Source of the DNA: an uncultured Planctomycetia bacterium | Lineage (GTDB): Bacteria; Omnitrophota; Gorgyraeia; JABMRG01 | DNA: 64,000 bases | Assembly (NCBI GenBank): GCA_964493115.1 | Contig: CAZBNF010000001.1 | Location: 1,786-65,785, forward strand | Reading direction: 5' to 3' | Part shown: positions 2,048 to 39,330 of the stretch, one piece after another | How positions within the stretch are numbered: position 1 is the first letter of the stretch | Layout: every line of letters starts with the position of its first letter | Program-made: the position numbers and the translations under genes | The notes under the pieces: model-generated | Seen by the model: the letters and a program-made list of their open reading frames with translations, nothing else | Told to the model about the DNA's origin: nothing | Database searches by the model: none

Positions 2048-3388
2048 TTATTTCTTGGTTATATTGAAAAATAAAATTATATTGGATTTATCTCTTTCAA
2101 TTTTTAAATCAAAGCTCTCTGCTATGCTGTTATGTACTATATCCAGTATATTCTTTTCGTTTCTTGGATAAAATGTCCAATTAGCCCACCAATCAATGGG
2201 AATGGGGTCATATTGTGTCATATCTTTGTGGGCCAAAACTAAGGAACCCCATGGTTGCAGGATACTAAACCAAAAGGAAATTAGCCGTTTAAGTATTTTG
2301 TCAGGAATATAATCCGCCAATCCTATGCTATAGATAAGTGAATAATTACCTAAAATCTTTTTGTATTCCTGGTCATTTTTTATATAATCTAATACATTAT
2401 GATTCAAATAATTGAATTTTAAATCTTTGGATTCGTAAGAAGCCAGGGCATTTCTGGAAAAATCCAAAGCCTCCTGATCATGATCTACCAATGTAAAAAT
2501 CATTTCTTTTTTTGGTACAGAACCTGTGCACAATACATCTACTATTTCCCTGCAAGATCCACAAGCAATGTTTAATATCTTTATAGCACCGGGTTGTCCG
2601 CTAATCAAATGCTTATTAAGTATGTCCTTCATCTTGTCTTTTCTGTTTCTCACAGCAACAGCATACTTATTATTTAGAAAATACGTGTCCGAGCAATATC
2701 CAATACCTTCCGAAATTGCTTTATTGTCATATATGAATTCTATGGTTAAGTAGTCTCCTGGATATCCACGCGGCTTTTCAAAAGCTCGCTTAAGAATTTT
2801 ACCTTTATACCCCCATGGCCCTAAAAGTGTCCTGAAACACTCTTTCAATTTTTTAGCAAGCGGTTTACTATTAAGCAGATTTTCAATTTCATGACCCTTT
2901 TTTACAATATCATCATTTAAATTTTCAGATTTCTTGCACGCATGGTCTAATAAGATATTATTATCTCGAATACTGCATGCAAGGGAATCCAATTGTGACA
3001 TAAACTTCTTACAATAAACAACAAAAAAATCTATCACTCTTTGTTTTGTTTCAAAAACTGGTATGTTGCCAACTACGCGCTCTATTGCCTTACGTATATA
3101 TATCTCACGTAAAAGATCTCGTTCTTTTTCTTTTAACCGTATAAAACAGGCACCATACCTGAACTTGCCTTTCTGCACAAGCTGCTTGTTCCAGATAACC
3201 TTAAACTCTGTTTTTATTGACTCTTTTGGTGATAACTCTATTTCTGCGGTTACTTTTGACAGCGATAGAGGTTTTTCAAAAACCAGACCAAGGCCTGTCT
3301 GGCTAATATCCACAACCTCGCCAAGAATATTAGAATCAATTTTTATAGGAAAAGACGCGTTGACTCTTGGATATGCCCGATTCTCCAT
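2048..3388 (-). CDS. PilZ-domain protein fused to a class I SAM-dependent methyltransferase (446 aa).
   Basis: The N-terminus has PilZ-like motifs (RAYPRV...DISQTGLGL). The C-terminal half has methyltransferase motif I (ILNIACGSCREIVDV) and downstream motifs (LVDHDQEALDFSRN, IYSIGLADYIPD). Its start overlaps the upstream gene (ATGA at 3388) and its stop lies 4 nt before the kinase start. Confidence 0.6.
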   Translation of the reverse strand: MENRAYPRVNASFPIKIDSNILGEVVDISQTGLGLVFEKPLSLSKVTAEIELSPKESIKTEFKVIWNKQLVQKGKFRYGACFIRLKEKERDLLREIYIRKAIERVVGNIPVFETKQRVIDFFVVYCKKFMSQLDSLACSIRDNNILLDHACKKSENLNDDIVKKGHEIENLLNSKPLAKKLKECFRTLLGPWGYKGKILKRAFEKPRGYPGDYLTIEFIYDNKAISEGIGYCSDTYFLNNKYAVAVRNRKDKMKDILNKHLISGQPGAIKILNIACGSCREIVDVLCTGSVPKKEMIFTLVDHDQEALDFSRNALASYESKDLKFNYLNHNVLDYIKNDQEYKKILGNYSLIYSIGLADYIPDKILKRLISFWFSILQPWGSLVLAHKDMTQYDPIPIDWWANWTFYPRNEKNILDIVHNSIAESFDLKIERDKSNIILFFNITKK

Positions 3389-4302
3389 TACTTAACCTTT
3401 TTTACTAAATCATGCTTAAAACATATTGACCAGAGCATCTTATTAAGGCGCTCTGCGTTTTCCTTGTTCTTTTCTTCGTCATATTTGAACATATCTTCAC
3501 CCTCAACCCAGATACCAGTGCTTTGAATAGTGCCTTTTAAACCGTGGGAATTTATATCCTGTTGTGTGCCGTGTACGATTATCGCCTTGGGGGCATATTT
3601 CGATTTCATAATATCAGCTAGCAGGCCGGCTGTTGGTTCAGATTTTCTGCCATGAGGTTCATCCATAGGCACATCTGTAGCGCATATTACTATATCGGGC
3701 CTGAATGCTGATAATGCTGACAGCACTTCCTTTTGACAATATACAGATATATACTCGTATTCGCCGTAAGGCTCTATAAGCGGGGGTGGGTATTCATTTT
3801 CACCATCCTGAATCGGCAAAAGATACGGCATCCAGAACTCTCTTTCCACAAAAAGTATCTTTGCCACAGGGATAACATCATCGCGTTTTTTGATTTCATC
3901 AAGTGTAACAGGAATAACTGTTGTATCTTTATCTTTCTGAGCCTTTAATACCTCATCAAGCCTTTCTTTTATTTCATTTAATACAGGGGGCTTTGGGAAA
4001 AAGCCGTCAACTCCAAGCTTTGCCACCACATCTTTCACCTGGGAATCATAGCTTGTTATCACTAATACTTTTGTTGAGGCGTATTTCTCGCGTATTATTT
4101 TTAGTATTTGCGTACCTTTTATGCCGGGAAGCTGCATATCAAGCAGAACCGCATCAGGCCTTTGCGTTTCAAGTATTTTCAAGGCCTCTTCACCTGTTAA
4201 GGCAACGTATAATTCATAATCAGAGGCCTTTAAAAAGTAACTTTCAAACAGGTTTACCAGGCTTTGATCATCTTCTACCATGAGAACTTTCATATTAGGC
4301 AT
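3388..4302 (-). CDS. Response regulator: N-terminal REC domain plus an uncharacterised ~180-aa C-terminal output domain.
   Basis: MKVLMVEDDQ...DAVLLDMQLPGIKG...VLVITSY...GVDGFFPKP is a typical CheY-like receiver with the phospho-acceptor Asp in LLDMQLPG. The C-terminal half (DVPMDEPHG...AIIVHGTQQD) matches no family I can name from memory. A GAGGAGG Shine-Dalgarno sequence lies 5 nt upstream. Confidence 0.75.
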   Translation of the reverse strand: MPNMKVLMVEDDQSLVNLFESYFLKASDYELYVALTGEEALKILETQRPDAVLLDMQLPGIKGTQILKIIREKYASTKVLVITSYDSQVKDVVAKLGVDGFFPKPPVLNEIKERLDEVLKAQKDKDTTVIPVTLDEIKKRDDVIPVAKILFVEREFWMPYLLPIQDGENEYPPPLIEPYGEYEYISVYCQKEVLSALSAFRPDIVICATDVPMDEPHGRKSEPTAGLLADIMKSKYAPKAIIVHGTQQDINSHGLKGTIQSTGIWVEGEDMFKYDEEKNKENAERLNKMLWSICFKHDLVKKVK

Positions 4303-4451: not shown

Positions 4452-7400
4452 TTACGCGGCTTTTTGTATTGCGCTGTTTCTATTTTTAAGGTTTCTAAGA
4501 TTTGCAGGGTCAATTCTGTTGCTTCTTATATCAACAGCAGGCGTTGTGACCGTGGTTTCTTGTGGAGTCATTAATGTATCGGATGTAATGCTTCTTTGGG
4601 CATTAGCAGATGATAATAATCTCATAACAGCTTTTTCAAGGATCAGGCTTGAGCGATGTTTTTGCTGCAGCCTCTGCAAAACAGGAAGTGCCCTTATATC
4701 TTCTATTTTACCTAATACTTCGGCAAGGCCTTCCATTTGACTTATACTATTAGTTTTTTCTATCGTATTTAGCAAAACAGGCACTATTTCTTTGCCTTTT
4801 TGTGTTAATACCTCTATGGCTTGTTCTCTTTTTTCTAAGGCAAGATGTTCTTCATTATAAGAACCAGCGCTTGAAGATTTCACCTGCATTTCAGCAGTTT
4901 TTGAAAGACTATTAACCCCAACTTCGGAAGCGGGTTTTTGATGCACTATAATATCTATTAAAACTTTGGCCAACACTTTTGGTAAATCATCAATCTCATT
5001 AACTAAAATAAATGGTTTATAAACATCTTTTACGTATTCCATAGCATATCCAATACCTATGCCAATTACTTCTATGTGTTTTCTATGGGCTTCAGCTAAA
5101 TATTTAGTTACACTCTCTCTCCCATTGCCCTGCCCATCTGTAATTACAATAGCTATCTTTGAATCTCCATCTTGACTTTCTAATTCCTTGATTGCCAACT
5201 CTACAGCCTCTGCATCGTTAGTGCCTTGTCCGCGTGCCATATAACTTAGCACTTCACTAATCAGGCTATCCTTGTTTTCATACCGGAATTTCTTGCCAAA
5301 CTCTTTATGAATCCAAGCTCTTTCGCTAAAACCTATTACGCTAAAATCAATATCCAGCCGCGATAGTACTTCTTGCAATAATACCAGGCTATGCATAGCG
5401 TTTATTACCTTATCAGAAGATCCCATTGAACCGCTTTCATCTAAAACAAGTGCAAATTTGAAGCTGCGCTTAGTAGGCTTTACTCTTCTTAACCATATGT
5501 CCATATCTGCGGTTTGTTCCATTTGCATGGCTTTTCTCAAATTTAGTTTTGGCCCGGTAGAATAATCACCTTTATATTTAGGCTTAATGTCTTTATGTAA
5601 TTCATTATCCAAAACACCGAATAACTGTTCAATCAAGCGGGTCATAGGAAGATAGTACTCATCATAACGTGTTAATTTTCTTTTACTATCTTGGTCGAGC
5701 TTCTCTCTAAGCTCTATTTGCTCTAATGCTGAAAGAGATTTTTCGCTTTTAGAAGCTGGGATACTTCGATCCATTAAGCCCTGAGGCTGCCCTACTCCTT
5801 CAGAAATTTTAGATTTACTATCTTTTCGTTCCCGACTTTCTTCTTTAGTAAGTGCGTCTGATGCTGTTTTTTTCTCATCAGTCTTATCTGCGCTACCCTT
5901 TATTACTTGGTTTTTAGTATCTGCTCTGCCGGCATCTTTCTTTACCCTGCTGCTTCCCGCAGTTTTATCTTCGGAAACAGTTTTTTCCAATTCTTCGTCA
6001 ATGGGAAATTTTCGCCCTAAAGCGTCTGCTGCTTCTTTAGATTTTTGTTCAACTTCTTGATTAGCTTTTTCCTGTTGTTGCTGAGAAGAAGCACCCTTAC
6101 CACTAGTTCGACTATTATTTTGCTTAGCTATACTTTTAGAGTCCTCTACGAGCTCATTATACGCGGGCAATATGTTGTGCTTGATAATCCATGCTGCATT
6201 TTGTGCAGCGCTTATTTTTTCTTCTGCGCTAGGGCTGAGATTGATAACAATATGGTGGGTTTCCCCTTCGGATAAACTAATGATTTCTTTATGACCCCTT
6301 GCTGTTGTCAGTACAATTTTATTCTCATCGATGCGCTGTATAGCACTTATATCAGGCTGTCCCAAATATTGCCTTTGCCCTATATGAGGAAGGTCAATAG
6401 ACATTGGTTTAAATACAGGAGAAGAAATTGTTATTCTATTTCCGCGTTCTTTTGTTACTGAAATAGTTCCCGGTAATGTTTCATAGGCCCTAATAGCGTC
6501 TTCCCTGGTTCTTTGCAGGACATCTAAAACGCGCTTATTCTTAATTGCAGGATGCTCTTTACCGTAAAACCAGTGGTGGATCAATCCTAATCCATATTGA
6601 ATATGCGGTAAAACAGTTGAATCATGAAAGGGCTCTTTTTGATCTATGGGGAATGTTTCTTTGTATAGATCTCTAAAGTAAGAAGAAGCCCCCTTATATT
6701 TTGCCATAATCCAATTATTGACCCGTGGATCTTCTACAGCATTAAATAAAAATCTATTTGATTCTGATTCGTGGAATTCGGGGTCAACCCATGTAATGTC
6801 ACGATGGCTGCCCTCATGCATAGCAGTTGCTACGTTGCACCGCCAGTTCTTCTTCATTAAATCCTTCTCAGGAAATACAATCGTGGGCGGGTCGGTATCA
6901 TATGTAATGCCCCATTCGTTTCCTGGATGGGGCTGAACTTTAACATTAAAATCTCCGCCAAAAAATTTCGCGGTTAATTCAATTTTACGCATAGCACTGT
7001 TTACCCGCTGCAGCTTTTGCCAGCGGTTTAACCTGCTAAACCAGCTTAATTCCTGCTGAGCCTCAGTTATATGCAATCCTGCAGAAGATGATTTTTGCGA
7101 AGTCAAATTTTCTGGATTTTTTCCTAGCTGTTCCTGCAAATTCGCTATTTCTTTATACATGCCATCTATTTTCTTGCTTAACTGGGCTAGGGCATCGCTT
7201 GTTGATTTAAGACTTTCTAATTTCTTCTGCATTGTTTCCAGATCATCTTCTGGATCTTTAGCAATTTGGCCTAAGGTTCCTTGCTGTTTTACATTTTTCT
7301 TTAAAATTAAATCTAGCTGTTCTTGAATATCATCAAGTTTGCTTTCAGTGCTTTTGGTTTCAACCGTTTTAGTTTCCAGCTCTTGTTGCGGAGCTCTGGC

Positions 7401-10400
7401 GGACTCCTCTAATCTTGCCTCTTTTTCCTGTCTTTCTTTTTCAGCTTGTGCTTTGTGCGCGGTTTCTGCTTCGGTTGCTTGAATACGGGATTCTGCTTCT
7501 TTAAATTTCTGCTCAAAACGGTCTTTTAATTCTTGCGTTCTTTGTGGATCATGCCTTTCCACAATAACTATCTTTTCTTCAAACAACTTTCTTTCTCTCT
7601 CTAAACCCTCTCTGCTGCCTGCTGAGGATGTCTTAGTAGCCGCGATATTGTCTAGGGACTGCATAATCGACTCTATATCAGACACAGCATTTCCCACGCT
7701 GATTGCAATAGCGCGCTCTGTATCAATCTTTTGCCTTCTGGCATTTATCTCTTTTTCAATATCGGCAAACTCGGCGTACAAGTCCTCTCCATATCCTTGC
7801 TTAAATTCCACGGAATATTTACCCGCATGCTCTTCGGACGCAGCTATCAGGACTATATCATTAACTATATCTTCATTTTTATCTATTATTGACTCTATTT
7901 GTTTAGACTGCTGCCTGCTTAGCTCTTCTAATCTTGCCTCTTTTACAAATAAAGTTCTGGGTTGTGAAATAGTTTTAAAAAACTCATTTGGAATTTCAGT
8001 TTCTTTTGTCTCTCTTTCAGGAGCAGCCAAGTAATGTTTGACTATTGAAATTTGTTCTTCTTCAGGCTGTTCACCAGAAACCCACAGTAAGCTAAATTTG
8101 TTAAGCATGGCCAAAGACAACCTCATTCTGCCTGCATAACTTTCAGGATTCATCGCAGCAAATAACCTAAAGGTGGGGTGTATACGATAAAAACCTTGTT
8201 TCCTCAACTGCGCATGAGCAATACTATCTGCTGTAGCAGGGTCTCGCGTAATGTTACCGCTTTTTAGTATCTCTTCTTTAAGTTTGTTGAATTTAGTATC
8301 ATATAATTTTGCGGGTAAATAAACTTCGTTCTCATGCTCTGTAACCACAAGAATTCCATCATCATCTAAGAGACTATTTATGCGCTCAAGCACTTCAGGC
8401 TCAGCTAAATTTAACTCATCAATGAGAATCCAACTGCCAGTTTCTAATGCTTGGAGCAATGCCCCTGGGTACCATTTATATCGGTTGGTCTTTTCCTCGG
8501 GAATAAACTGACCTATGAGTTCAGCTACATCCGTTTGGCCATCAAGATCTAAACTTATAAAATTTATATTGACAAGATCCGATAGATGTCTTACAAAAGC
8601 AGTTTTTCCGCCTCCTGTTGGCCCGACAAGAAGCATGGGTTCGTTTCTTAGTACCGCCTTGGCTAATTTTTTAAGATACTTAGAGGTAGAAGGTGTTAAA
8701 TCTAAAGGATGAGCAGGAACATAAATATCCCTACGGCCATTTGTTTCAAGATATATATCTCCGAAATATATTTTATTACCCTTACTAGAAATCTGATAAT
8801 CAGTATCATAAAAATCACTGCCAAATTTTTCAGCTAGCGTATCATAAAGATATTTTCTAAGTTCCTCTTGATGCATTTCTTCAGATAATCCATCACCATA
8901 AACTTCTTTGCCCTCTAAAACAGCCGCTCTTCTTAACGTATTTTCATCTTTAACCGTAGTGTCTTTTATGCGGTTCAGCCACCGCATTAAATGTCTAATA
9001 GTATAATATATCTTGCCATCTGCCAACTTTCTCCCTTTCTCTTTTATCTGGAAATGTACATCTAAAAACTTATCTAGAAGCTGGGCAGGGAGCTCCCTTC
9101 CGTAAAGTTCCTTGATGATGTCCATTGTATCGGGGTCTCTACGTAGTTCATCTATCCACTTAACCCTGAATCTATTCATTAAAGCTGGTGAAAATCTTTT
9201 TCTACCAGCATATTCTGCATCAGCGGGATTCATTGTCGCTAACAAACGGAAGTCTGGATGTATGCGGTATAGTTTTGTATCTTTAACCACAAGATACTCT
9301 GCGCCGTTTGAGTCCTTTTTAATCGCATCTGTATTGGATTTAAGTAAAATCTTTTTTTGATCATCATACCTCTCTGCCTGTATCCATTTCTCATTCTCAT
9401 GTTCGGTCACTACTAAAAATCCATCATCGTCTAATAAGGAATTTAATCTCTCAATGATCTGAGACGGGGCAAGATTGATCTCATCTAAAACAAGCCAATG
9501 CCCTTCTCGCATTGCTTCGATTAATATGCCATTGCGCCAAACAAAAACGCCATTTTCATCGGGCTTAAAGCCACCAATAAATTCTAATTTTTCTGTTTGG
9601 CCGCTTAGATTAAATCTTCGGAAATTATTTCGTGATTTATTAGCAAGATATCTTATAAAAGAAGTCTTACCTACGCCTGTTTCTCCTACCAATAAAAGAG
9701 GTTCTTTTAAAATTATACTCAAGGCAATATTGCTGAGATTTAATTTTGTTTGAGGCGTTAAAATAAGTCTTGCAACTTCTTCACTGGGGACATAATCCAA
9801 TGTATTATTTTTATTAACAAGCACTTGGGCACCTTCAATGTCAATTGATTTACTATCAAAATTAATTTCAACAGGCACACGTCCAATCGCATACAATTTT
9901 AAATAATCCAAGTCCAACAACGGGACCGCCATTTGCTTTCCCTTCAAAACATCCTCAATAATCTCTATAAACAGTTTCCTGTCGTTTGTTTTTGAATCCT
10001 CTCCTTTTTCATTTTTATATCTGAATTCTTTGGCATGCAGCCTGTCAATATAGATATAAGCCAGTCCTTTATTAAATGCCTTATTCATGCCAACTTTAGG
10101 GCTCATCATGGAAATATAACGTGATAGAGCCCGCAATTCTCTTATGCTAAACTCATATTCTGCAGTAAAAACTGAAAGTTTTTTAAAAATATCCTGGAGT
10201 TCTGTGTGGAATAAAACCATGGCTTTAGCTGCTGAGTCCAAGGCGTGGCCTTTAATAGTACCTTTTGAATACTCCGATAAATATCCTTTAGTTATTTCCG
10301 TTAATTCTTCAAAAGACATATCGCCAGAAATCCAGATTTCGGTAAATTTATTACGCATTGCTATAGACAGCCTGTTTCTGCCTGCATAATGCTCTGGGTT

Positions 10401-13400
10401 CATTGCTGAAAAAAGTCTAAAATCAGGATGAATTCTAAATATCTTTTCTTTTGTCAGCTTTTCGATTGCCCTTTGCCTCGCTTCTTCTTTGGATACTCCC
10501 GAAGTAATATATTCCTTTATAAATACATCTAATTTCTTTTCGTATTCAACACTTGATATAAGTTTTTCGTTCTCATGTTCGGTTATCACCAAACAAGAGT
10601 CATCATCTAGAAGTGAATTTATGCGCTCTAAAATTTCAGCTTCAGCTAAATTAATTTCATCAAATAGTACCCACCATCCTTCTTTAAGCGCTCTCACTAG
10701 CATACCGTCCTGCCAGAAAAATTCGTTCTTCTTTCCCTCAACAGGAACATATTGCCCAATGAGTTCGGAAGTATCTGTTTGAGCATCTAAATTCATCCTG
10801 GCAAAATTATTTTGCGTAAGATGTGCTATATAACGAATAAATGAGGTTTTCGCACTTCCTGTCGGGCCTACCAGCAGAACTTTTTCATTCATCATAACAG
10901 CCTTGGCAATTCTTCTTAGATAATGTAAAGTACTCTGTGTGTGGGTTAAGATTGCTTCGCGTCCCGGTATGTATGGGCCTCCTCTTTGATTTTTGGGTAC
11001 AACTATATCTCCAAAAATAGAGTCAGATTGCACAATTTGCGGACTTTGGCCTAAAACAGATTGTTTCTCAAACGCTATCCTTATAAGTTCATTGGCCAGG
11101 AAGTCCTGTTCATCTTCATCACGAATTCTATCGCTATAAACCTCCCAAAGCTCTCGCATAAGGATATCATCCCTTTGGTAACCATCTAGAGGCATGCTTG
11201 TATTGTTTTCTTCTAAATCTATTATACGTGCTACTCGTTTTCCTAATTTTAAAAGATCGCGAATTGAATAGTGATACGGATCAACTGCATCTTTTCCAAT
11301 TTCCCGTAGCTTAGCTGCTGTTGATATGCGCTCATGAACAATACCAAGCCTGTCTAATGACCCGTCTCCTGAAATAAAATGCTTTTCAATGTCGTCTTTA
11401 AGGGCACCTGTTTCTTTAGCATAATACTTTTCTAAAAGTACGAGTTTTTTTTCTGTGGTGGTAAGCTCATCTATCCACTTGACCCTAAATCTATTCATAA
11501 GAGCGGGGGAAAGAATTTTACGCCCTGCATATTCAGCAGGATTCATTGTTGCAAATAAACGGAAATCGGGATGAACACAATAAATCCTTCTTCCGTCACT
11601 ATCTACAAGATAGTTAACTTTTCTAAACTCATCGAAGAACTCTTCAGCTCCCTGTCTTTTTTTCTCTTCATATACTCCGATAGACTTAAAATGCTCTCCT
11701 AAGTGTTCTGCCAAAACCAATGTGCGATCATCGTCTAAAAGCGAGTTTAGTCTTTCAAGAACCTGTGATTCTGCAAGATTTAACTCATCCAAAACCAGCC
11801 AATGCCCATAAAGCATTGCCTCTAACAGTATTCCGTCTTTCCACTTAAATACTCCTGATAGATCCGGCTTATATCCTCCTATAAATTCTGTTTTATCGGT
11901 TTGGCCGCTTAGGTTAAATCTCCTAAAACTGTGCCTGGTCAAATTAGCTAAATATCGCACCAAAGATGTTTTGCCTACGCCTGTTTCTCCTATTAATAAA
12001 ACAGGGTCATCTAATAATACAGAAAGAGATATTTGTTTTAGGGCCTTGACAGTATCTATAACAGGGATTAATTCAGAATTTTCTGATTCAGGAATAAAAA
12101 CTTGCGTATTTCCTGAATCCTGTAATGGCGCGGGTACAAAGATTTTATATATAAGAGCGCCGTTGTCCAACCGCTTGATTGCGTCTGGCCGCAATGTTTT
12201 TAGCATATCATCTTTGCTTGTAGCTTCTTTTTTTATACTTGCCACTATATTATTACTTTCAAGTAACGCATTACGATATTTTTTAAAGGTCTCTATTATC
12301 AAAGGTCCATAGCTTGATAAAATTTCCCTAAATCCAATCCATTCTCTCTTTTTAATTTCATCACCATATATTGCTTTTATAGGTTTATATACGATTTCTC
12401 TAAATGTAGTTGCGGCTAAAATAGTAAAACTGGAAATAAAATAACCAAAAGCTCCTCCGGTAATCGCGCCAAATGCAATCTGTGTCCACTGCGGAACCCA
12501 CCCAATAATAGGAATTACGGGCAGGCTGTCTATTTTTGCAGTATGGAATAGCGAAATATTGAAAATTATACCCAATATAAAGCCTGATAAAAGCGTAAGC
12601 TTGCCATACCACGTATTAAAATAATTAAGTTTTTCTTCTGATTCAAATGGGAAGTGAATAAATTTGCCTTCTTTCGTTTTTTCAAGCAATGAATAAAAGT
12701 CCTCTAAATCCAATGCCAATTTTTTATATCGTGCAGAAAGTATTTGTAGCTGCGGTAAATAAATAAGATAATATGATTGCCCGAGTAAATCTAACAGGCC
12801 AAAACTAATTCCAAATACCCCCGAAAATATACTTAAATAAGCAGAAAATACAAGTATACTGCTAGTTGTGTATAAAGCTAAAATTACGGGCAAAGTAAGC
12901 AGGCCTGCTACAATAGTGCCTGTGACTAAATAGGTAGCGGCGTTTTCTTTATTGAATCTCCAAATCCTGCTTCCAAATAGGTATCCCAAAAAAGCAATTA
13001 AAGCTGTGCTTAAGCTAAAAGACGAAGCTTGCAATATAAAAGGTGTAGCAAAAATCATTACTGCTGAACTAATAAGAAGTAAAGAAATTATTGTTGATTT
13101 TTTCTTTAAAAACCCAAATATACCCAAATAATCTCCTGAACTGTCTTTTAATCTAATAAGTCTTTGCAAAGTCTTATCCCATGGCAATTTATCGGGGCGC
13201 TTGCCAGGGTTTTGCGAAAGACGCGGTATAGCTTTCTGTTCCCATTCCACCCATTCTAATTTTTCTAAAACCAAAGCTGAAGTTAATCTTAAATCTTGAT
13301 TATCATCGCTTAGAAATACCGCCAGCTTAGCCGCAAATGGTGTAAATTCATTAACAAAATTCTTATCCCTTGGGTCAAATACCTGACTTAACGTTTCCAT

Positions 13401-16400
13401 TGCTGCTTGTTTTATTTTTGAATTAGGGTGTTCTAAAGCTGCATCAATTAATTCAAGGGCAATGCCTTTTGGTAAAAGAGCAAAACCATATATACCATGG
13501 ATCTGCTTATCTGGATTAGTAAGATTAGAAAAAATATGGATTAAATATTTTTCCCGAAGTTCTTTGGGAAAGCCTAAGGTTAAATCAACAAACTTAGCGG
13601 CTAACTTCTGTGAGGCTATATCCATGCCTTCGCTTTTTCCCTGGCTAATTAGCTCATTAAAACTTACGCCTTCCCCTAAAAGCTCTCTTTCCTCTTCAAC
13701 GCTAATCGCCTCAAGCCCCCCAATACCAGACTGGACTGCCTGGGTAAAAATTGGCCCTAGTATTTCTTTATAAAATATATCCTTATCCCCTGAAATATGT
13801 TCTTTTGTTCTGGCAGCTGACCCATATAATCTGTCACAATATATATATATAGCGCCATCAAAAATAGCTCTATTTATTCCCCAATACCAAATATTATGAG
13901 GATCTGTCTTGATTTGTTCAAAAAATGCTATGGATTGCATGGTTTTTTCTATACCAGACTGTAATTCCTTCTTATATTCTTCTATCTTCTGAGGATCGCT
14001 TATCTTTGTTATCTCTTCTTTTATCTTAATTATCCGGGATGCTAGCTTTTGCTTATTGTCAGCATTTTTTTCTCTTTGTAGCAGACCTTCTAACGGGTTT
14101 AATTTTACTTCTTTGAGTTTTTCTATATATTCTTGTTTTTTTACAGGATCGGATATCATGGTTAATATTTCTCGTTTTTCATTTAATTGCTGCCTGTTAT
14201 CCTCAACTGATTTCGCAATAACTCCTTCACCAATCTGCATAACTAGATTTCTAATAAACTCAGCCCAATCCTTTAGGTCTCTAAGGCTAAAGTTATAATC
14301 TTCAGCATTTCCAGATAAAGCAAGCCTATTAAATCTATTCTCTCTGATCTTATTCAAAATAGACATATGGACTGAAGCCATAACTTCTATTATAGTATCC
14401 AAAGATTTGCCTTGAATAGGCGGTCCTTTAAATAAACCTTCTTTGGCCAAATAAAAACGTATAATTTCTTTTAATTCTTCGGGGGAAAAATCCCCGCTAA
14501 ACCATTTTTCAATAAATTTATTTTTCATTGCTAAAGACAGCCTATTTCTACCAGCATAATGCTCTGGATTCATAGCAGCAAATAGCCTGAAATTTTCATG
14601 AATACGGCGTAAATTAGCCATATTTTCACCATTAGCTTTTTTTTCATCATAAACATAACCAGGAATCCAGACTTCCCCTTTATGCTCAGTCACTACTAAT
14701 GAACCATCATCATCTAAAAGTGAATTTATGCGCTCTAAAATCTCAGGTTCTGCTAAATTAAACTCATCAAGAAGAAGCCAGTACCCTTCTTTCATTGCCC
14801 TAATCAGATCTCCATCCTGCCACAGAAACTCGGAAGTCCCCTCTTTGGGGATATTTTTACCGATTAAATCTCCAATATCGGTTTGACTATCAAGGTTAAG
14901 ACGAATAAAATTATTCTTTGTTAAATAAGCAATGTTTGTAAGCGAAGCTGTTTTTGCACTTCCTGTCGGGCCCACCAGAAGAAGGTTTTCTTTCATTTCA
15001 ATCGACCTGGCTAAATTTCTTAAATTTTTCTTCGTAGCAGGAATGGGGGCCAACTCTGCTTTGCTGGTAGGGATAAACAAGCCACCCTTCTTATTAATAG
15101 GTAAAGCAACGTCTCCAAAATACACTTTATTTTTAGGCTCATCTATTTTTATCTCTGTGTCAACCTGCGGAGGTTCGCATCCAAATACTTGTTCTTTTCT
15201 AAGCAGGCCCTTAAACAATCTTTGATCTGCTTCTGATTTCAGGCTATCGCCATAAACTTCCTGCGCCTCAAGAGCAAGCTGTTTGTTGATAATTTCAGGG
15301 GAAGGGATATTGCTAAGCCTAGATAGCCATTGCTGGATACGTAAAGCAAGCCTAAAGAATTGCCTAATTGTAAAATAATAAGGCTGGCCAATTTCCTTGC
15401 CTAATTCTCCTTCCTTACCAGAAATACCGGCTAGCTCAGCGTAGAAATTGGAAAGCCTGTTAATTATATCATCGTTTAAATGATATTTTTTTCTTAAAAT
15501 TTCGCATATTTCATCTTGAGTAAAGTTTCGTATCCATTTAACCCTGAATTTATTCATTAAAGCAGGCGAAAGCTGTTTTCTACCCTCATATTCGGGAGGA
15601 TTCATTGTAGCAAAAATCCTGAAATTAGGATGTATTCTAAAAATACCCCTCGCAGACAGCTGAGTAATAGCCTGTTTAATCAGATTTTCTCTTGTGCCGG
15701 TATGGCTACCTGCATATTCGTTAACCAATTTATCATAATCTTTAGCTTGCAGCCATTGCTCTCCTTTATGTTCATTGATCTTTAAGTAGCCCTTTGGTTC
15801 AAGAAGATAACGAATACGTTCGATTACTTCTGGTTCAGCTAAATTAATCTCATCTAGAACGAGCCAGTGTCCTTTCTGCATTGACTCAATTAGAATGCCA
15901 TTGTACCATTCAAACTTAACCCCTTTCTGTTTATCAAGGCCCTTTTTATGAGCAATTGCCTCTGCAACATTGGCAACCAATTCCCATCTACGGGCGCTTA
16001 AGGCATCTTGTATTAGTTTTTTGGCTTTTGGAAAAGATATCTTGCCTCCAGTAATTAATCCTACTGATTCGGCCAATATCCGCTGCTCCTGTCTTGTCGA
16101 TGCTGCCACAGCTTGATTAATAATATCAATTGCGTCTTCCCGCGTTAAATATGTATGCGAAGGCTTAAAGCCTCCGATAAACTCCAGCTTATCAGTTTGA
16201 CCATTAAGGTTAAAGCGTCTAAAAGCATTTTTAGTTAAAAAAGCCAAATCTCTAACCAGGGATGTCTTGCCAACACCTGTTTCACCTATTAAAAGAACTG
16301 GGTCATTTAAATCTACTGCCAAGGCCACTTTTTCAAGATCCTCTATTGTCCTGGGTATAAGAACAAGTTCTGCCGACTGCCTGCTAGGTATATATTCGGA

Positions 16401-19400
16401 ATCAGTAGAAACATTTATTTTTATTTTCAGATCACCAATTGTTATATCTCTATCGTTTTTAACAATATTGTTTATAGCTTGTTCTTTAGACAAAAGCGCT
16501 AATAAATCAATTTTTCTACCCTCTTTATAATCTGCCAATTCAAGAACTTCTAAATCTAGACTCAAAGCATTTATATTATAATAAAATCTATCTTTATCTT
16601 TTTGGTTTTCCATGCGGTCAGCATAAACATAAACAGCACCTTTTATAAATGATGTGGCAGCCCCCCATTGGGTGTGAAAACGTTGATAAAATTTAGCCCA
16701 TTTATAGAGTTCCCTTAAAGTGAATTCATAAGGTTCGAGCTTGTTTTCTCCTATATTCCTTTTGTGAATATCTGCTACCATTTTTCTGTGAAACCTTACC
16801 ATAAGATTAGCTATTTTAGGCTCTATATCATATTTTGTTCCAAGATAAGAAGCTATTCTTTTCGAATGCAAATCTTGCCATAGAGATATTACTTTATCTC
16901 TTAACACAACCATTATTGCAGCGGATAAACCGTGCTGCAAATCCTTAGGGTAAAACTGCCTAATGTACTTAATCAGTAAATCTGGAATTTTCTCTATTCC
17001 ATAATTCTGGGCGTACGTTAAGATCTCATGGAATTTTCTATCATCGAGATCATTATCTGCTTTGAGCACAGAAAGAACTTCTTCTTGTTGGCTGGGTACG
17101 AAAGAAAGGAAACGCATTATTTCATGACGGAGAACGGTAAGCTCCTCTATCACAGGAGGGGCCCTCCGATTTAAGGATTCAACTAAAATATGCTGTAATT
17201 CATGCTCTATTTCCATAAATAACAAATAGTAAGATTTAAAAGCATCTTTATCAATTATAATTTCGTGAGTATTCTTGTCCAAATGCATAAGGCGGTCATT
17301 GCCTGTAACAATTTTGATTTTGGTTATTTTTTGAATTGCCTGTAAATTTCCCGACGCGGCTAATTCAGATAAAACTTTTTCCAGCATTCCCTTTTCTTTA
17401 GAGGTAATTAAGTCCTTGTAGTTGGAATTTATTCGTAATTCTATATTCAATCCGCTTCTAATAAATGCTTCTGCAATAATCATAGGTTTTTGGTTTAAGC
17501 CAACATGCCTTAATATGGATGACGCTTTCCTTTTAGTTTTCTGTTCTCTTATATATTTAATAAATCCAAATAAGCCCCCAATACCCACCAAGATTATAAG
17601 ATATGACGGGGCTAATACTCTCGCCCATTTTTTTATTTCAGGCCATGTAACATAATTGAAGTGGAGGTTTTGATGAGTCTTTTGCGCTTCCAGATAATCT
17701 ATTTTCCATAAAACTGCTTTAGCCAAGCCGCTTAATTCTAGATCGGACTTATCCCAAATAGAATTAGTAAGCGCTCTTTTTGAAGGAGCGCCTATTCTAA
17801 CAAGAACATTAAGAAGAGCCTGCCTTGTTAAGGGGTTTTCATTACGTAAATTTGCAACCAATTCATCACAAGCAGGCTTACCTATACTTACTAAGGCCTC
17901 TGCTGATAGTTGTCTTGTCAGGACATCTTTGCTTTCCAAACCAACAATAAGGGCTCTAACTCCTTGCGTATCCAGCATCTTTATAGCGTTTAAAGCATGG
18001 GCCCGTTCAGTTTCCGGAGATTCTTGAGAAGCTAACACTCTTACTAATCTATAGACAATTTGCGAGTTGGACTTTTCTTTTAACTCTGCAATCGCGGTTT
18101 TTCTAATATTTTCACCATGATGTAGAATTCTCTGCAAAAATCTGTCTATGTACACATTATCAAGAGCAATTATCTCTTCAATTGCCTTGGCAGTAGTTAA
18201 CCTAACATATTCATCAGGATCATTTAGAGCCTTATTTAAAAATATTTGTATGTTTGGAGGTGAAAGCCTGCCCAAAGAAAAAACCGTTTGCCTGCGTACA
18301 TAAGGATTCGGATCATCTAAATAAGGCGTTAGCGAATTAATAATCTCCTGAGAATAGCTAAAATTACCTAAAATATTTGCAGCAACCGCCCTAACCCGCC
18401 AATCAGAATCTCTTAAACTTGCGGCTATCCTATGAGCAACTAAATTTCGAAATTGATAATTAAGAGAGGCTCTTTCCAAGCTAACTATTGCTGCTTTGCG
18501 CACAAATAGATCATCATCCTGCAGGCGTTCCATCAACGGGCCAATGGATTGCGCAGTATCAAAGCCTCCATTAGAGCCCAAAGCCTGAACCGCAGCCTTA
18601 CGCACTCGTACTGATTTATCATTGGTAATGCCGATAAGCGGGCCCACGGCTTGCTTGTCCGTCATTTGAGCTAATGCAATAGCTGCTCTCCAGCGAACAT
18701 CTTCGTTTTGGTTCTGTAAAGCCGGAATAAGCAAATTAATTGATGCGTCAGGGTTGTTGATATCCAACAAGGCGTTTAAAGCGCCTTCTCTTACCGTGTA
18801 AGCATCAGAGCCAAAAGCTTGAATTAAAGAAGGAATTGCAGGAACGCCTATCCTGGTAAGCAATTCTACCGATTGTTTTCTTGCAGAAGGATTCCAATGG
18901 TTTAACCTCTCCACAAGAGGGCTCACTGCTTCGGGGCCGATTTTCGCTAAAATATTTTGCGCTTCTTCTCCAGTTTTTTCATGATCAGAAATCCGAAGAA
19001 GCGGCATAGCAGCAGGCCGGCCTATTTGGACAAGCGCTTCTTCGACAATGCTTCTTTTTATCTCGAGATTACGAGAACCATAATAAGGACGATTATGTTC
19101 AGCTTTTAAAGGATAGATTAGATGCTCGCCTGATATAGTGCTGTTTTTTAAAATTCTAATAATGGGCCTTACCGCTTTTTCTGCCCGTAATCTGCCCAAA
19201 GTTTGTATTGAGATATTTACTATATCGCTCTCTCTGTCATCCAGCCTTTCTATAAACGGTTTGATTATATCAGGGCTATTACTTCTTGCTAAAACCATTG
19301 CTGCTGTGCGGCACACCTCATCGTCGTTGTCTTGCAGTGCTTTAAGCAGTATGGGTGTAGGATCAGCCCCGCTTATATGTATTATCGCCTCAACAACTAC

Positions 19401-22400
19401 TTGAATGTCAAAATCTTTATCATAACGACCTTTTGCCATTAATAGCAATGGCTCTACAGCCCTGCTGTCATTCAGTTGAGTTAGTGCGTCAATGGCTATT
19501 TTCCAATTTATGCGCCTATTTTGCATGGCATTTATAATCGGTTCAACCGCTGCTTTATCACCTATTATTCCTAGAATTTTAGCTGCAAAGTCAGCCCTGT
19601 TAAGCCCATCCCTTCTATAAGTATGGTGTCGGCTCGGGCCATCTAATGCACTGATCAGAAAACTTACCGCTGGTTTTCCCATATTTACCAGTGCGTTTTC
19701 ATCATAGTTATCTATAGATCTTAATATGCTGGCTTCTTGAGAATCTGTCTTGACACGCGCTAGAGCCTTTACAGCGTGCTCCCTTATTTCCCAATCGCTA
19801 TCGCTGGATGCCCTCATTAAAAAATCTACTGCTTGAGGGTTATTTAATTCAGAAACAATCTCCACAGCCCTTCGCCTAACACTTGGATTATCATTAGAAA
19901 GAACCTTGGATGCTGCTTGCATTACCTGCTGAGGATGATCTTTGCCAATTCTAACTAAAGCTGCCTTTGCAGTATCTTGATATTGAGAGTTATTAATATC
20001 ACGTAACATATCCGCCAAACTAGATAACGCAGGTCTTCCTATTCGCACAAACGCATCTGTAACTTTGCTTTGAAGTTCTGAATTCAGGCCTAGTATTTTC
20101 TTTAACAATTCAGTATCTGTAGTATTTTCTATAACACCTAACCTGTTCAATGAAGCAACGGCTGCGCGTCTTACCTCATAAGAACTATCGTTTAATGCTT
20201 CGATTAAAGGCTTAATAGCCTGGCTGTCGCCGCAAATGCCCAAAGCCTCAGCAGCAGCTTCTCTTATAGATGTTTCTCTGTCCGATAAGGCCTCAATAAG
20301 TGAAATGATTATTTTCTGATCCCGCGAACCCCGCTGTTTATGCTCCGTCAACCCTTTTATGGCTGTAATTCTATTCGCTGATTCTTTACTAGAAAAATAA
20401 ACAGCGGTTTTATAGCCTATGAAACCAGAAATGCCCGAAAATGCTATAACTAAAAATAAGGCTACACCACTTACGGGGCGTGATAATTTCTTTTTTATAA
20501 TATATCTCACTGTAGCAAAAAGTGACAAGAAGCCAAGGAACCCAAATGTTACCCACATGGTTGTTATAGATATGTTGTTCAGTAACTTTGCAAGTTCGTT
20601 TACAGATGGGCTGGATTTTTTTAATAGTTCTTCATGCATACCAATGCTATAGAGTAAATAAAAGCAGTAAACCATGAAAAAAACACTAGCAGCTGTTATT
20701 TCTTTACCTACTCTTTTCTCTTCTATTTGTCCTTTAATAAATTCTTCTGTTTTTTCAACCCCCTTTATAAATCCGCTTATAGGATAATAAATTAGGTATT
20801 TGCCAAAATAATAAGGCAGCAATACTGTATGCTTGATAGCTTTACCTATGCCCTTGCCTACGGCTTTAGAATTCTCAACACTTGCCTTAATAAGATAACC
20901 TGCTCCCACAATAGAGCCTAAACCAAGAATGCTAAGGCCTATCCATTTAAAAACCATGCCTGCCAACCGGCGCCGTTCGGCTTCCACGCGTTTACGTTCT
21001 GCCTGCTCCTGCTCTCGTTTAATTCTCTCTTCTTGGCGTTTACGCTCTTGCTCTATTCGGGCTGCTTCTGCTCGTTTTTGACGCTCTATTCGAGCTTTTT
21101 CTTCTTCGAGTCTTTGTTGCTCTGTTTTTTCAGGTGTTTCAACCGTCTGTTGGGGGATTGCCTGAGGCCTCTGCCTCACAGTAGGCAACTCTATCTTGGT
21201 TTCCTCCTCACTTGGCTGGGTGGTTCGCATAATATGTTCTTCTGGAACAGGCTGTTGTGCATGTATTTGCGGCGTAAATCCTAACCAGGAAGAAACTATA
21301 ACTAACCCCATCAAAAACATTTTGGGGCCCTTAAACCAGCGTTTGGCCCTATCTAACATTCCTGATTTTGGTAATTTAGATTTACTGATAGCCTGATTTA
21401 TGTTTTGCTCTTCCTGGTTTACTCTTTCAAGGAGATTTTTTAATTCTTTGATAATTTCACTCTCCGGGCGCCTCGCTGTCTTGCTAATTCTATCAATCTC
21501 ATATGATGAATTTAATACATCTTTAATTATTGCTCTTGTATCTTCAAAAGGCTGTGTAAGAATATAAACATCAACTTCTCCAACTAAAGAAATCCACCTC
21601 TCCCAGCTTGCTTTTGTCACAAGAAATCTTATCGCATCCCGCCCACCAGCCTCAGCGAGAGCGATTGTAATTGCTCTCATCAATTCTATCTTCAATCTTT
21701 CGTTCCCAATAATGCTAAGTGGATATTTATCAATTAATGTTTGAACAATGTAAGAACGCTTCTCCGTCTGCGTAGGGGTTGCTAACCCAGCCCCGATTTT
21801 GCCTAATGCTAAAATTGCTTCTAAACCAGTCTTACCTCCACTGATAGAATTTGTGAGAGGCGCAATAGCTTCTTCTGCACCGACAAATCCTAATGCGCGA
21901 ATTGCATTAACCTTTATGCTATCATCTGGGTCAAGACTGGTTAAAGATTTTAACAATATCGAAATTAGTTCGGGGTCTATTTGAATTTCCTTTATTCTAT
22001 CTATAAATTCAACCGGTGGTTGAGTTAATGCGCGTGACTCTGGAAACTTTTTATCAAACATATCAGTTCTATCTTTAAACTCGCATAAAAGCGAAATTAT
22101 TTCTACCTTAGGATTTCTTATCTTAAATTTAGCCAATTCCAGGGCAGATAGTCTCAGAAGATCCCAGTTAGATTCTTTGTCGTTTAAAATATCCAGCAAA
22201 GGTTGTTTAATAATCAGCTCTCTTGATATCTTAACTAACCTCTTTAATCTCTCGTTTTTGCTGGCAACGGCAAGCGTTGTGTCATTTTTGGTTTCTTCAA
22301 TTTTCTTATTTAATGCTTCTTTAACAATGTTTTCATCCATATCTTCTATACATTCAATTATAAAATTTATAATCTCTTTATCGGATTCTTCAAAAAAAGC

Positions 22401-25400
22401 AAGAATAAGCAGCTTAATTATGTCATTTGAACGCTCAAGGACTTTTGTTTTATTTTTATCTAAAATATATAGAATTAGTTCCGAGGCCTTAAGCCCTGCA
22501 GGGTCATTTATTTTCCTTAGGCTGCGGGCAATATGCTTTTTGACTATCCATAACGGATTTTCTAAGCAACGCATTAATTCTAAACCCCCAGCATTACCAA
22601 GTGCAGCCAAACTATCTTCAGCCTGTGTTTTTTTGGTGTCTACCTGGGTTTCTATTACATTGATTAATGGATCGATTGCTCGTAAATCTTTTGCTTTAGC
22701 CAAAGCGTGACCTACTATAAGAGGGTTTACATTTTTTCCTTCTCTCCAGCTATTTAAGAGATACTCTAAGGCCGGTTTTCCTAAAGCAACAAAAATATCT
22801 AACACTTCTGATTCAAAACGGTCGTAATCATGCCAAGGAATACTGCGCTCCTTTTCAATTAACAACCTAACTATGGGAAGACCAATTGCAATCAAGCTGT
22901 TTCTCGCAGCCAAACGTTTTTGCTCATTCTCGCTTACTAAACTATTAACAAACTCTTCTATTTCCTTCTGAGAAAACTTTATTTTAGTCTCTGTTCTTTC
23001 GTCCCTGGGAACTTCAGGCGCTTTCTCGATTTTTGCTTTTGAAATGGGCGGAGTAACTGCAGGCGGAGCCTTTTCTACTACTGGCGCTGTTTCAGCTTTT
23101 ACTTCAGAAACAGGCGGCTTAACTTGAAGAGCTGGGGACTTTACTTCAACTTCTGCCTTCTTTTCAATAACAGAAAGCACTTGCTGAGCCTTACTCGCCT
23201 GCGGCTCTTTGCCTAAGCGGGCAGCGTTTTGAAGGTATTTTATAGAGCCCCTGTCTTTCTTCCCTTTTTGATATGAATCTATTGCTTTAAGTACTCTATC
23301 TATAAAATCCTTATCTTCAGGGATACCATCTTTAATTGGCTGGACATAACTCATCCTGACAGCATTGCTTTTATGGTAAATTCTATCTAAAGTAAGTATA
23401 TCTGGTAACAGCCGAAGCGCATTGGGGTTATGGACACTATAGAATGCGTACTTAGCCCACTCCTGAACCTCTTCTGATTTGCTATATAAAGCATCTTTTA
23501 AAAATAGGAATCCTTCTTTATCTCCCAGTTGCATAAGAGCCCCCGCAAGAAGTATACATGCTTCGCTGGGACCATACCCCTCAAGGAGCTTATCTTTGCC
23601 TGCACTTTTTAGATATTCGCTGCTTTCTCTCGTAGCATATTTATCAAATACTTCTCTTATGCCCATTATCGCAGGGTCACCGATTGTATCGACAATATGC
23701 TGAAGAAGGCTTTTTAATGTTTTCGTACTATTTTCACGCACGCGACGCCACCCTGCGGGATCTTGCTGATATTGATGCTCAATTAGCGACGCAAATATTA
23801 ACCTCATCAAAGAATTTAAAGTACGGCTTATGCCTATAGGGCTGCCAAGAACACATAATAGGTGGGCAATTGAATTTAAAAAATCATCGCTATAGCTTAC
23901 TTTTCGGTTAATTGGTTTACCTTGAACATCATTATCTTTAATATAATAATAAGGATGGGCATATATTTCTTCAAGATATCGTATTGCAGAAAGCCTTATG
24001 TTTTCCAATTTTAATATATTTTCAATTACATCTCCACCAACACCATCTACATATAGTTGCATTAGCTCTCTTAAAACTGCACTATCGATTTCTTCTAACG
24101 ATTCCCAAATCTCTAAAACTTTTTGCATTTCTTCCGTGTTATAAAAACGCACCGCAGGATCTTCTAATCCGAGATCTTTAAGAGCTTTTTCTATAATAAC
24201 ACGTACATTTTTCGCACTAATAAGTTTTGGTTTTTCTTCAACAGGGGCTGTTGATTCTGGCTTAACTATTGGTTTGGTCGGAGCTTCTTCTACTACTGGC
24301 TCTGTTTCAGCTTTTACTTCAGGAACAGGCGGCTTAATTTTTTCAATAGGCCAGATTCTGGCAAAACCGCGCCAGGTCCAAGGATCTTTTCTTGGAAAAG
24401 AATCTAAAATTTCTTTATCCACGCCTATAGGCGCTAAACCCAGGCCTGCAAGCCTGCTTTGATAGGCAGTTTCTGAATCTGTCGGCACGATTTCAGATGC
24501 CTTATTCTCACGGCTAAGCGGTGGAAGTGTTGCGGTATATTCCCTTGCGTATTTTTTCTGAAAATACCCAACAAGCCCGCCATTAGGTGCATAAAAATTA
24601 GAAACAAAACCTAACCAGACTTGCTTAAATCCTGTATCTTGAGCGTATTTTGTTAAAGTCCCTATTATCTGTTCGCCAACGCCTGTAGATTCCTGAAGAT
24701 TATTAAAGGGGGGATTTTTCTCTCTCGGTTTAGGCATCGTATGAAATGGGCCTGCATCCTTAGAGGGCAGCTGCAAGGCATCGATAAGTAAAACAGCTTG
24801 ATTGTCTTTGTTTCTGGCAGCTGCTGTATAGACATTTCCTGCCCACTCCCACTGTCCTTGCGTAAGTTGTTTATACAATCTAAATTTTAAGAAACCCGGG
24901 CTGCGAATGTGGCCAAGAACATACTTTAAAAAAGGAGAACCATTGGCAAAGCCTGGGTCAGTACAATCCGCGCTGATATAACCCCCAATTAAATCTAAGA
25001 TATCACGCGGCGCTAAAACAAGCTTGTATTGACGGCCATTATAAGTAAAACCTAATCCGTTTTCTATAGAAGAGGGTGTTGCATCAAAAGATTCCTTTAA
25101 TCCGGCCTGCCTTTTAAACTGGTCGTAATCCTGCACAGAAAGCATATCCTCTTTTTTTATTCTTCCTCCTTGGGAAATGCTGCTGTAAAGGCTCTCTATT
25201 ATTCGGCTTAAAGAAGCGTCTTTTTTTGCCAGGTCAATTAACATTGCCTTAATTTCTGCTTTTGAGTCTTTAAAAGGATACAAGTTATTAAGCACAGCCC
25301 AAATATTCTGATCATGCTGGGGGATATTATCAAAGAGCTGGCTTATCATATATTCGGGAGTTCTTCTTCTGGCCTGTTCTTTCGCCTCTTCTTCTGTCAT

Positions 25401-35168: not shown

Positions 35169-39330
<4,162 letters not shown>

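Follow-up and report, generated by a model that had tools for sequence, protein, structure and literature searches.

A conserved HExxH-bearing, zincin-like domain and a CobT-like MIDAS module behind six midasin-type AAA modules in a giant Omnitrophota protein

The ATPases of the MoxR class (viz. CobS, NorQ, CbbQ and midasin) all act via a partner bearing a von Willebrand factor A (VWA) domain, and the role of the N-domain of this partner is only now being resolved structurally. For CobT, a July 2026 preprint (10.64898/2026.07.21.739949) describes an N-domain 'resembling peptidase M48C', made up of one helix, a three-stranded sheet and eight helices, which attaches to the ATPase CobS at the small domain of the latter and is connected by a ~90-residue disordered linker to a VWA domain placed behind two 'shaft' helices. 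The N-domain of NorD likewise binds the small subdomain of NorQ (PMC13036017), and in the Delftia phage RG-2014 an AAA gene is found near gp36 (PMC5735904), which encodes a protein of the DUF2201 type. The partnering of a zincin-like N-domain plus VWA domain with a MoxR-clade AAA+ ATPase is already known from DUF2201 and CobT. The present work concerns a stretch of 64,000 nucleotides, referred to in its full length as the window, of contig CAZBNF010000001.1 (assembly GCA_964493115.1, positions 1,786 to 65,785 of the forward strand), from an uncultured Planctomycetia bacterium whose GTDB lineage is Omnitrophota. Its minus strand carries a single unbroken open reading frame (ORF) for a giant protein that holds all of the parts described here. 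A preliminary description, based on the letters of the window, had suggested that a HExxH metallopeptidase-like motif and a C-terminal VWA domain in this protein represent a DUF2201-like peptidase-VWA pairing fused to its ATPase partner. The overall explanation that we favour, and regard as likely, is that the protein carries a CobT-like module with a gluzincin-type domain, fused to midasin-type AAA modules. Its features are listed below with positions in the window and in the protein (aa, amino acids; AF2, AlphaFold2; MIDAS standing for metal ion-dependent adhesion site).

4452..30212, minus strand: giant ORF of 8,586 aa
7893..16415, minus strand: six midasin-type AAA modules, aa ~4600-7440 (Pfam, motif scan, PDB search)
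7041..7892, minus strand: charged, coiled-coil-like spacer of ~285 aa between the sixth AAA module and the zincin-like domain, aa 7441-7724 (sequence)
6012..7040, minus strand: zincin-like (HExxH) domain, aa 7725-8067 (AF2, relatives, conservation, hhalign, PDB profile matches)
6804..6818, minus strand: HEGSH, aa 7799-7803 (H7799, E7800, H7803), putative zinc-binding/catalytic motif
6714..6743, minus strand: NAVEDPRVNN helix, aa 7824-7833, with E7827/D7828 as candidate third zinc ligand
6243..6470, minus strand: beta-rich insert in the zincin-like domain, ~76 aa long (aa 7915-7990)
5742..6011, minus strand: disordered linker rich in K, S, E and D, aa 8068-8157 (AF2 and composition)
5601..5729, minus strand: two long pre-VWA helices, aa 8162-8204, equivalent to the CobT alpha0'-alpha0 'shaft' (AF2, CobT alignment)
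4941..5579, minus strand: VWA/MIDAS domain, aa 8212-8424
5427..5441, 5220..5222 and 5136..5138, minus strand: MIDAS residues D8258, S8260 and S8262 (DESGS), T8331, and D8359, respectively
4455..4892, minus strand: C-terminal tail, aa 8441-8586 (weak HEAT_2 match, E 0.0018, under the Pfam cutoff)

The HEGSH sequence is found at the position given earlier and lies 459 aa before DESGS, in keeping with the ~460 aa that had been estimated. However, the span of 4950-6950 then assigned to the pair is too short at its upper limit, as the domain runs ~90 bases past 6950. Based on composition, 0.17 occurrences of HExxH are expected in the whole protein. A word-indexed homologue search found 2 relatives only, and a profile of those 3 sequences, run exhaustively against 1.84 billion representative proteins, found 340 relatives at E<=1e-3, 110 of them with E<=1e-10. 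When the best 151 relatives were aligned to the domain profile (with denominators of 144 for the HExxH positions and 150 for the helix following them), H7799 and H7803 were each seen to be kept in 142/144 and E7800 in 143/144. A second conserved block, L7822-x-N7824-x-x-E7827-D7828-P-R7830-V-N7832 (LxNxxEDPRVN), is nearly invariant, with N7824 and N7832 each kept in 133/150, E7827 in 135/150 and D7828 in 146/150. In this block E7827 and D7828 are 24 and 25 residues past the second His of HEGSH, which is within the interval of 18-30 residues where a third zinc ligand had been anticipated. After the zincin-like domain nearly all of the relatives have 400-500 aa of linker and VWA domain, and a DxS[GA]S MIDAS motif is present in 95 of 114; in the source databases they are annotated just as 'VWA domain-containing protein' or 'AAA family ATPase'. 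Because HExxH is near-invariant among the relatives, it is not incidental, and sequence comparison confirms HEGSH as the signature of a conserved zinc-peptidase-like domain for which there is no curated model. The beta-rich insert of this domain (pLDDT, the AF2 per-residue confidence, ~85-95) is seen in the closest relatives only (P0001, P0003-P0007, P0009), and the greater part of the family lacks it.

Assignment of the domain to the zincins is suggested by three indirect lines of work, which agree with each other, viz. a profile comparison with DUF2201_N, profile matches in the PDB, and the topology of an AF2 model. For the first of these, 22 proteins containing both PF13203 and PF09967 were assembled, seeded from gp36 of Delftia phage RG-2014, and the hhalign comparison of the family core with their DUF2201_N region gave a probability of 91.6% (E 8e-7, score 47.2, 80 columns), in a register which places HExxH on HExxH and NaiEDPRVNN on NiACDiwINN, as compared with a maximum of 3.7% and a score of 22.1 in 60 column-shuffled controls. 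When HExxH of the query was changed to GSGSG, the same alignment was recovered with E 0.0033, and about half of the signal therefore lies outside the motif. A direct comparison of DUF2201_N with CobT_N was also tried, and it showed no similarity (0.5% in hhalign); these two are connected through the family of the giant protein only. For the second line, a domain-only profile of 31 sequences was searched against all PDB sequences, and it matched projannalysin (4jix, E 4.2e-4) and selecase MJ1213 (4qhf, E 0.013), and more weakly Ste24p (4il3, E 0.22) and the CobT N-domain (21vu, E 1.1). Projannalysin and selecase are the 'minigluzincins', which serve as soluble models for peptidases of M48 and M56. 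The AF2 model of the module, built from a 64-sequence alignment, has a mean pLDDT of 85, with values >90 across the zincin-like domain, as compared with 55 on the HExxH core when a 3-sequence alignment was used. In this model (numbered by model residues) a backing helix (2-28) is followed by three strands (34-37, 44-46 and 53-56), the helix bearing HEGSH (66-82) and next after it a long helix (93-114) bearing E7827/D7828; the rest of the domain consists of further helices, the beta insert and long C-terminal helices. The structure predicted for the HExxH region is thus a confident one, and homology to DUF2201_N and minigluzincins is established at the profile level, though with no direct Pfam match. 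According to the preliminary description, the HExxH would be incidental if the region had neither a downstream third ligand nor profile similarity to metallopeptidase folds; a candidate for the former and the latter are both present. Searches of PHROGs gave VWA/CobT families and, for the relative P0065, a weak 'peptidase' match (phrog_459, E 2.6e-4), and among 62 stand-alone relatives none match peptidase, DUF2201 or CobT N-domain models (E<=0.01).

The remaining part of the module resembles CobT and midasin. Pfam VWA (PF00092) matches the tail of the protein with E 1.7e-14 (54.9 bits vs a cutoff of 23.8) and CobT_C (PF11775) matches with E 3.9e-7 (30.4 bits vs a cutoff of 21); matches are also seen to PF13519 and PF05762. 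All five MIDAS positions are present, including T8331 in GQGTND and D8359 in VITDGQG, and the intact MIDAS reported earlier is borne out. When a profile of the module was searched against the PDB, the best match was CobT (9uka, E 1.4e-36), spanning the linker, the pre-VWA helices and the VWA domain, followed by the MIDAS domain of Rea1/Midasin (6qt8, E 8e-27) and NorD (E 4e-16). An hhalign comparison of the family with CobT_N is collinear over 141 columns (E 2e-4), with a probability of only 46%. Based on these results, the C-terminal ~720 residues are likely to constitute a CobT-like adaptor module with a midasin-type MIDAS. The low-complexity linker expected between the HExxH domain and the VWA domain is present as well: aa 8068-8157 have a pLDDT <50 and are predicted to be disordered, and the low-complexity stretch of aa 8036-8160 (125 residues, containing 20 K, 17 S, 14 E and 10 D) is a polyampholyte with a net charge of +2. 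In position and disorder this linker corresponds to the linker of CobT and to the D/E-rich linker of midasin, to the second of which it had been likened; however, the likeness does not extend to an acidic composition. Across the family the linkers have a median length of ~100 aa and lean towards acidity, with a median net charge of -5 and values <-5 in 41/92. The proposed DUF2201-like pairing is supported, with refinements: profile homology and the order of the motifs agree with it, whereas Pfam DUF2201 membership and a VWA domain of the PF09967 type do not, as PF09967 was never matched by either the giant protein or the 62 relatives. CobT and midasin are, moreover, nearer to the module than DUF2201 is.

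The AAA region matches Pfam AAA_5 in 7 stretches (E 1e-132) and AAA_lid_7, which is a midasin-type lid, in 4 stretches. Walker A motifs are located at aa 4643, 5081, 6075, 6449, 6843 and 7197, and in a motif scan all six modules showed Walker A, Walker B, sensor-1 and an arginine finger, so that the six ATPase domains described previously in the same polypeptide are six complete AAA modules preceding the tail. Along the chain, modules of the GETGVGKT type alternate with modules of the GPTG[SG][AG]KT type, which gives three A-B pairs. In a PDB search aa 6001-6999 matched Midasin with E 6e-136, as compared with 6e-7 for NorQ and 7e-6 for CobS, and by these scores the ATPase is specifically midasin-type. 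AAA modules 2 and 3 are split by a long insert with several hydrophobic segments resembling transmembrane (TM) segments (aa ~5400-6000, window ~12200..14000). The spacer of aa 7441-7724 has no Pfam match.

The association between the module and such ATPases was examined in a genome scan including one genome per species, which was queried with the 3-sequence alignment, and in which the loci were annotated with locally built hidden Markov models. The scan identified 48 loci with a zincin-VWA unit, from Omnitrophota, Planctomycetota, many Patescibacteria, Elusimicrobiota, Proteobacteria, Myxococcota, Bacillota and DPANN archaea, and the VWA domain followed the zincin-like domain in the same ORF wherever the ORF was complete. 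A tandem AAA_5 ATPase was fused to the unit in 11/48 loci, encoded by a neighbouring gene in 26/48 and undetected in 11/48, where 10 of the 11 are truncated contigs. On metagenomic contigs the unit is encoded on its own, by a gene of 600-800 aa that adjoins the tandem AAA_5 gene. In locus L001, for example, a 1,315-aa ATPase is followed after a spacer of 337 bp by the zincin-VWA unit, and in L004 the unit precedes a 1,101-aa ATPase, with L005 and L006 being similar. These stand-alone ATPases are homologous to the A-B pairs of the giant protein, with <=37% identity over 691 aa. With 37/48 loci in which the two are fused or adjacent, linkage and fusion are established for the family at large, the claim that a peptidase-VWA pair has here been joined in one chain with the ATPase it partners is upheld, and it is well supported by gene order that the zincin-VWA unit is the usual partner of midasin-type ATPases. 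Some of the split systems are followed by arrays of genes for WD40 beta-propellers (L004 5545..11219, L005 10888..11280, L006 52..240), which recall the WD40-containing substrates of midasin, Rsa4 and Ytm1; midasin binds their UBL domains and has its role in pre-60S maturation. As a conserved third component these propeller genes were rejected, since they are neighbours in 1/48 loci. The MoxR-vWA-beta-propeller ternary systems, in which the propeller is fused C-terminally to the vWA domain and a variable third component is present, were also considered (Kaur et al. 2020, PMC7159879), and they do not fit the architecture: only a tail of ~145 aa follows the VWA domain in the giant protein, with no C-terminal propeller, and the propeller neighbours are not conserved.

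Relatives of the module are also found in phages. In a Foldseek search of BFVD the best full-length matches were phage proteins named 'CobT' (e.g. A0A6J5NJV0), with E values down to 8e-17; in tblastn the zincin-like domain gave no match against phage genomes. The gene of Vibrio phage ICP2 that carries the annotation 'aerobic cobaltochelatase CobT subunit' (L056 2445..4160) keeps HExxH and the N-x3-D helix, and the cobT gene of S. meliloti (L007 2210..4105) has neither. These phage proteins carry their cobalamin-gene annotation without evidence, and given that the ICP2 protein keeps both HExxH and the helix, the phage 'CobT' labels probably mislabel zincin-VWA adaptors.

Under the explanation favoured here, the module would consist of a gluzincin-type HExxH domain, a disordered linker of ~90 residues, two shaft helices and a VWA domain bearing a MIDAS. 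It would be the obligate partner of tandem midasin-type AAA+ ATPases. In the giant protein and in related giant proteins it is fused behind six AAA modules, which would give a single-chain midasin-like machine, and in most genomes it is a separate protein of 600-800 aa encoded beside a two-AAA gene. By analogy with CobST, NorQD (PMC13036017) and Rea1, the VWA domain would dock on the AAA ring and place its N-terminal extension in the pore, an AAA lid domain would be clamped by the zincin-like domain, and the MIDAS would capture an acidic residue of the target; stepwise binding of ATP would then rotate the VWA domain relative to the N-domain, by which the linker would be stretched and the MIDAS-held target remodelled. 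Further, the zincin-like domain would bind zinc and cleave captured or unfolded polypeptide, making the assembly an ATP-driven, MIDAS-targeted protease. Both zinc binding and cleavage of the captured polypeptide are probable, and they are proposed because the zinc-site residues are near-invariant here yet lost in true CobT, which docks without them. However, several points weigh against this explanation. Scans of aa 7700-8060 with Pfam and NCBIfam at E<=10 gave no match, none of the PADLOC models match the HExxH domain, and in fold searches matches to the VWA domain dominate, with none obtained directly for the zincin-like domain. Due to the lack of a curated model, homology to known peptidases rests on profile-profile and weak profile-sequence scores, and about half of the hhalign score to DUF2201_N is carried by the HExxH columns. 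No third conserved component, substrate or cleavage site was found. The homologous N-domains of CobT and NorD are non-catalytic, lid-binding anchors, and docking alone might explain the domain. Lastly, the TM-rich insert between AAA modules 2 and 3 is odd for a one-chain ring of six modules, and its sequence implies a membrane-anchored motor.

Of the other explanations, the one built on docking holds that the zincin-like domain is a non-catalytic anchor that only clamps an AAA lid, by which rotation of the ring could stretch the linker; the role of HExxH and the E/D residues would then be to keep a structural metal in place or to give the binding surface its shape, with no cleavage. The observations that CobT_N, which has the same topology, and the NorD N-domain bind the small domains of their ATPases, that the module is collinear with CobT, and that no evidence for a substrate or for cleavage was found, are all in line with it. 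However, true CobT docks without HExxH, and docking, therefore, needs no such motif; further, the catalytic Glu is kept as faithfully as both His, and a structural zinc site would not need this Glu. We regard the anchor as less likely than the catalytic explanation, but as a serious rival to it. It is improbable that the peptidase serves instead for self-processing of the giant protein at inter-domain sites, with release of the tail module or other segments. Such a role has been proposed for the peptidase domains of other Omnitrophota giant proteins (bioRxiv 10.1101/2023.11.21.568195), and of four copies of K-[ST]-S-S-[AS]-G in this protein two (aa 7707 and 8445) bracket the zincin-VWA module; however, this motif is absent from the equivalent positions of the orthologues P0180 and P0007, and most members of the family are small proteins encoded on their own, in which there is nothing to be processed. 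KSSSAG-like motifs were thus rejected as conserved processing sites, as they are not kept in orthologues. The four copies are at aa 184, 7527, 7707 and 8445 (window 29625..29681, 7596..7652, 7056..7112 and 4842..4898, respectively) and use different codons in each; SSAG was seen 3 times vs 0.15 expected and SSSAG 2 times vs 0.01 expected. That they are lineage-specific processing sites is one possibility.

It is more improbable still that the tail is simply a true cobaltochelatase CobT, or a bona fide Pfam DUF2201 protein, fused to an ATPase. In its favour are the CobT_C match above the Pfam cutoff, CobT as the best match in the PDB and the 91.6% probability of the DUF2201_N profile. However, PF06213 (the CobT N-domain), PF13203 and PF09967 match neither the giant protein nor the 62 relatives, true CobT is without HExxH, and the ATPase is midasin-type and not CobS, the partners in 37 loci being tandem AAA_5 proteins (CobN was not searched for); in addition, the family occurs with tandem AAA_5 partners in bacteria of the candidate phyla radiation and in DPANN archaea. 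Least probable of all, to a degree that it may be set aside, is that HExxH is a chance pentapeptide within a helical spacer. In its favour, the region has no curated family model; however, the near-invariance of the motif in 151 relatives of many phyla, the confident globular AF2 model and the profile matches to peptidases have already refuted this interpretation.

Outside of the module and the AAA region, the N-terminal 4,200 aa of the giant protein contain coiled coils, TM segments and HEAT repeats, and in aa 1-4200 Pfam at E<=0.01 matched HEAT-type repeat families alone. A DxDxT motif typical of HAD-family phosphatases (MIFDIDNTLTD, aa ~1393-1403, window ~26000) is recognizable there at the motif level only. 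A second HExxH (HELQH, aa 4337-4341, window 17190..17204) occurs directly before the first AAA module, where it follows beta-strand-like segments. The surrounding region (aa ~4230-4440) is kept in the orthologous giant proteins P0180 (58% identity, HELQH), P0007 (HELQH) and P0021 (HEMVH), and no match was obtained for it with the domain-only zincin profile or with Pfam; the region may represent another metallopeptidase-like domain, unrelated to the first. On the minus strand, immediately downstream of the giant gene, are genes for a response-regulator receiver protein (3388..4302) and for a PilZ and methyltransferase-like protein (2048..3388), which may be co-transcribed signalling genes. On the other side, gyrA (31316..35149) and gyrB (35169..39032), both on the minus strand, contain one intein each (Intein_splicing), with a LAGLIDADG homing endonuclease in gyrA, and dnaN (39334..40428) and dnaA (40510..41883) are located just upstream, so that the giant gene adjoins a dnaA-dnaN-gyrB-gyrA cluster. 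This set of genes typically flanks the replication origin.

Three aspects of these results appear new: that the family lacks a curated model, that it forms a bridge by profile between DUF2201_N, CobT_N and the minigluzincins, and that it has an intact zinc motif while partnering midasin-type tandem ATPases, here in a single chain with six AAA modules and a Rea1-like MIDAS. The family indicates that the N-domain of the VWA partner is a zincin whose zinc-site residues are intact in widespread prokaryotic systems, and it raises the hypothesis that some machines of the MoxR/midasin type are proteases, beyond remodellers or metal-insertion chaperones; small two-gene versions fit for reconstitution exist (e.g. 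L004, L019 and L046). Tentatively, and with more doubt than confidence, one may go further and suggest for the giant protein a prokaryotic midasin in a single chain, with a tail that keeps the ancestral, catalytically competent form of the CobT/NorD/midasin adaptor. It would be an ATP-driven protease with an architecture that is new, in which the MIDAS hook selects, the six-AAA ring pulls and the gluzincin cuts. If this were true, then CobT would be a dead-peptidase derivative, and the fusion of six AAA modules to a MIDAS tail would have its origin in prokaryotes and not early in eukaryotes. The six-fold fusion has been proposed to have arisen early in eukaryotic evolution (PMC3495828), and the giant protein together with P0180, P0007, P0021 and P0033 bears on this view. 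More generally, prokaryotic proteins in which a Rea1-like MIDAS accompanies six AAA modules of the midasin type bear on the origin of the midasin architecture.

In comparison with the known systems, the likeness to midasin (Rea1/MDN1) consists in six tandem midasin-type AAA modules on one chain and a C-terminal MIDAS domain of the Rea1 type. However, no zincin-like domain was detected in midasin chains with the domain-only profile, and the ~1,700-aa helical linker and D/E-rich region of midasin are missing from the giant protein, where the gap between the AAA modules and the MIDAS is made up of the ~285-aa spacer, the zincin-like domain and the 125-aa linker with its net charge of +2. The giant protein is, further, prokaryotic, with three repeated pairs, a TM-rich insert and a large N-terminal region of HEAT repeats, coiled coils and TM segments. 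NorD/NorQ and CbbO/CbbQ, which are MoxR-VWA remodellers, differ in that the domain-only profile has no NorD match, that their partner ATPase has a single AAA module, and that their known role is metal-cofactor insertion and not proteolysis. With the minigluzincins and the M48 and M56 peptidases, the family profile aligns over the backing helix, the three-stranded sheet and the helix of HExxH, and in the family the helix that comes next bears an acidic residue as candidate third ligand; however, the similarity to the minigluzincins is limited to the first ~85 profile positions, and these are free-standing or membrane peptidases of ~110 aa, attached neither to VWA domains nor to AAA+ rings. The DUF2201 proteins (e.g. 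gp36 of the N4-like Delftia phage RG-2014) share HExxH followed by the N-x3-D-x2-[IV]-N-N helix and then a VWA-type domain, but they are ~400 aa in length, without the long disordered linker or shaft helices, and the VWA domain of the giant protein is of the CobT/midasin type, with no Pfam-level match to PF13203 or PF09967. The phage CobT-like proteins are similar in that ICP2 gp40 keeps HECYH and LNMVVDHNIEH and has a linker that is acidic as well as a VWA domain with MIDAS, and they differ in that their partner ATPases are of single-AAA CobS/MoxR types. Lastly, CobT, the medium subunit of the aerobic cobaltochelatase CobNST (PF06213 and PF11775; PDB 9uka, 21vt and 21vu), shows the same succession of an N-domain, ~90 disordered residues, shaft helices and a VWA domain with MIDAS, its FDAVEQARVE corresponds to FNAVEDPRVN of the giant protein, and both partner a MoxR-clade AAA+. 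However, the linker of CobT is strongly acidic whereas that of the giant protein is neutral, and CobT partners single-AAA CobS together with CobN, for the insertion of cobalt, in place of tandem or six-fold midasin-type AAA modules. Further, true CobT from S. meliloti has GDSMALRKACHD where the family has HEGxH, and as this is not an HExxH, CobT is to be regarded as a relative that lost the zinc motif.

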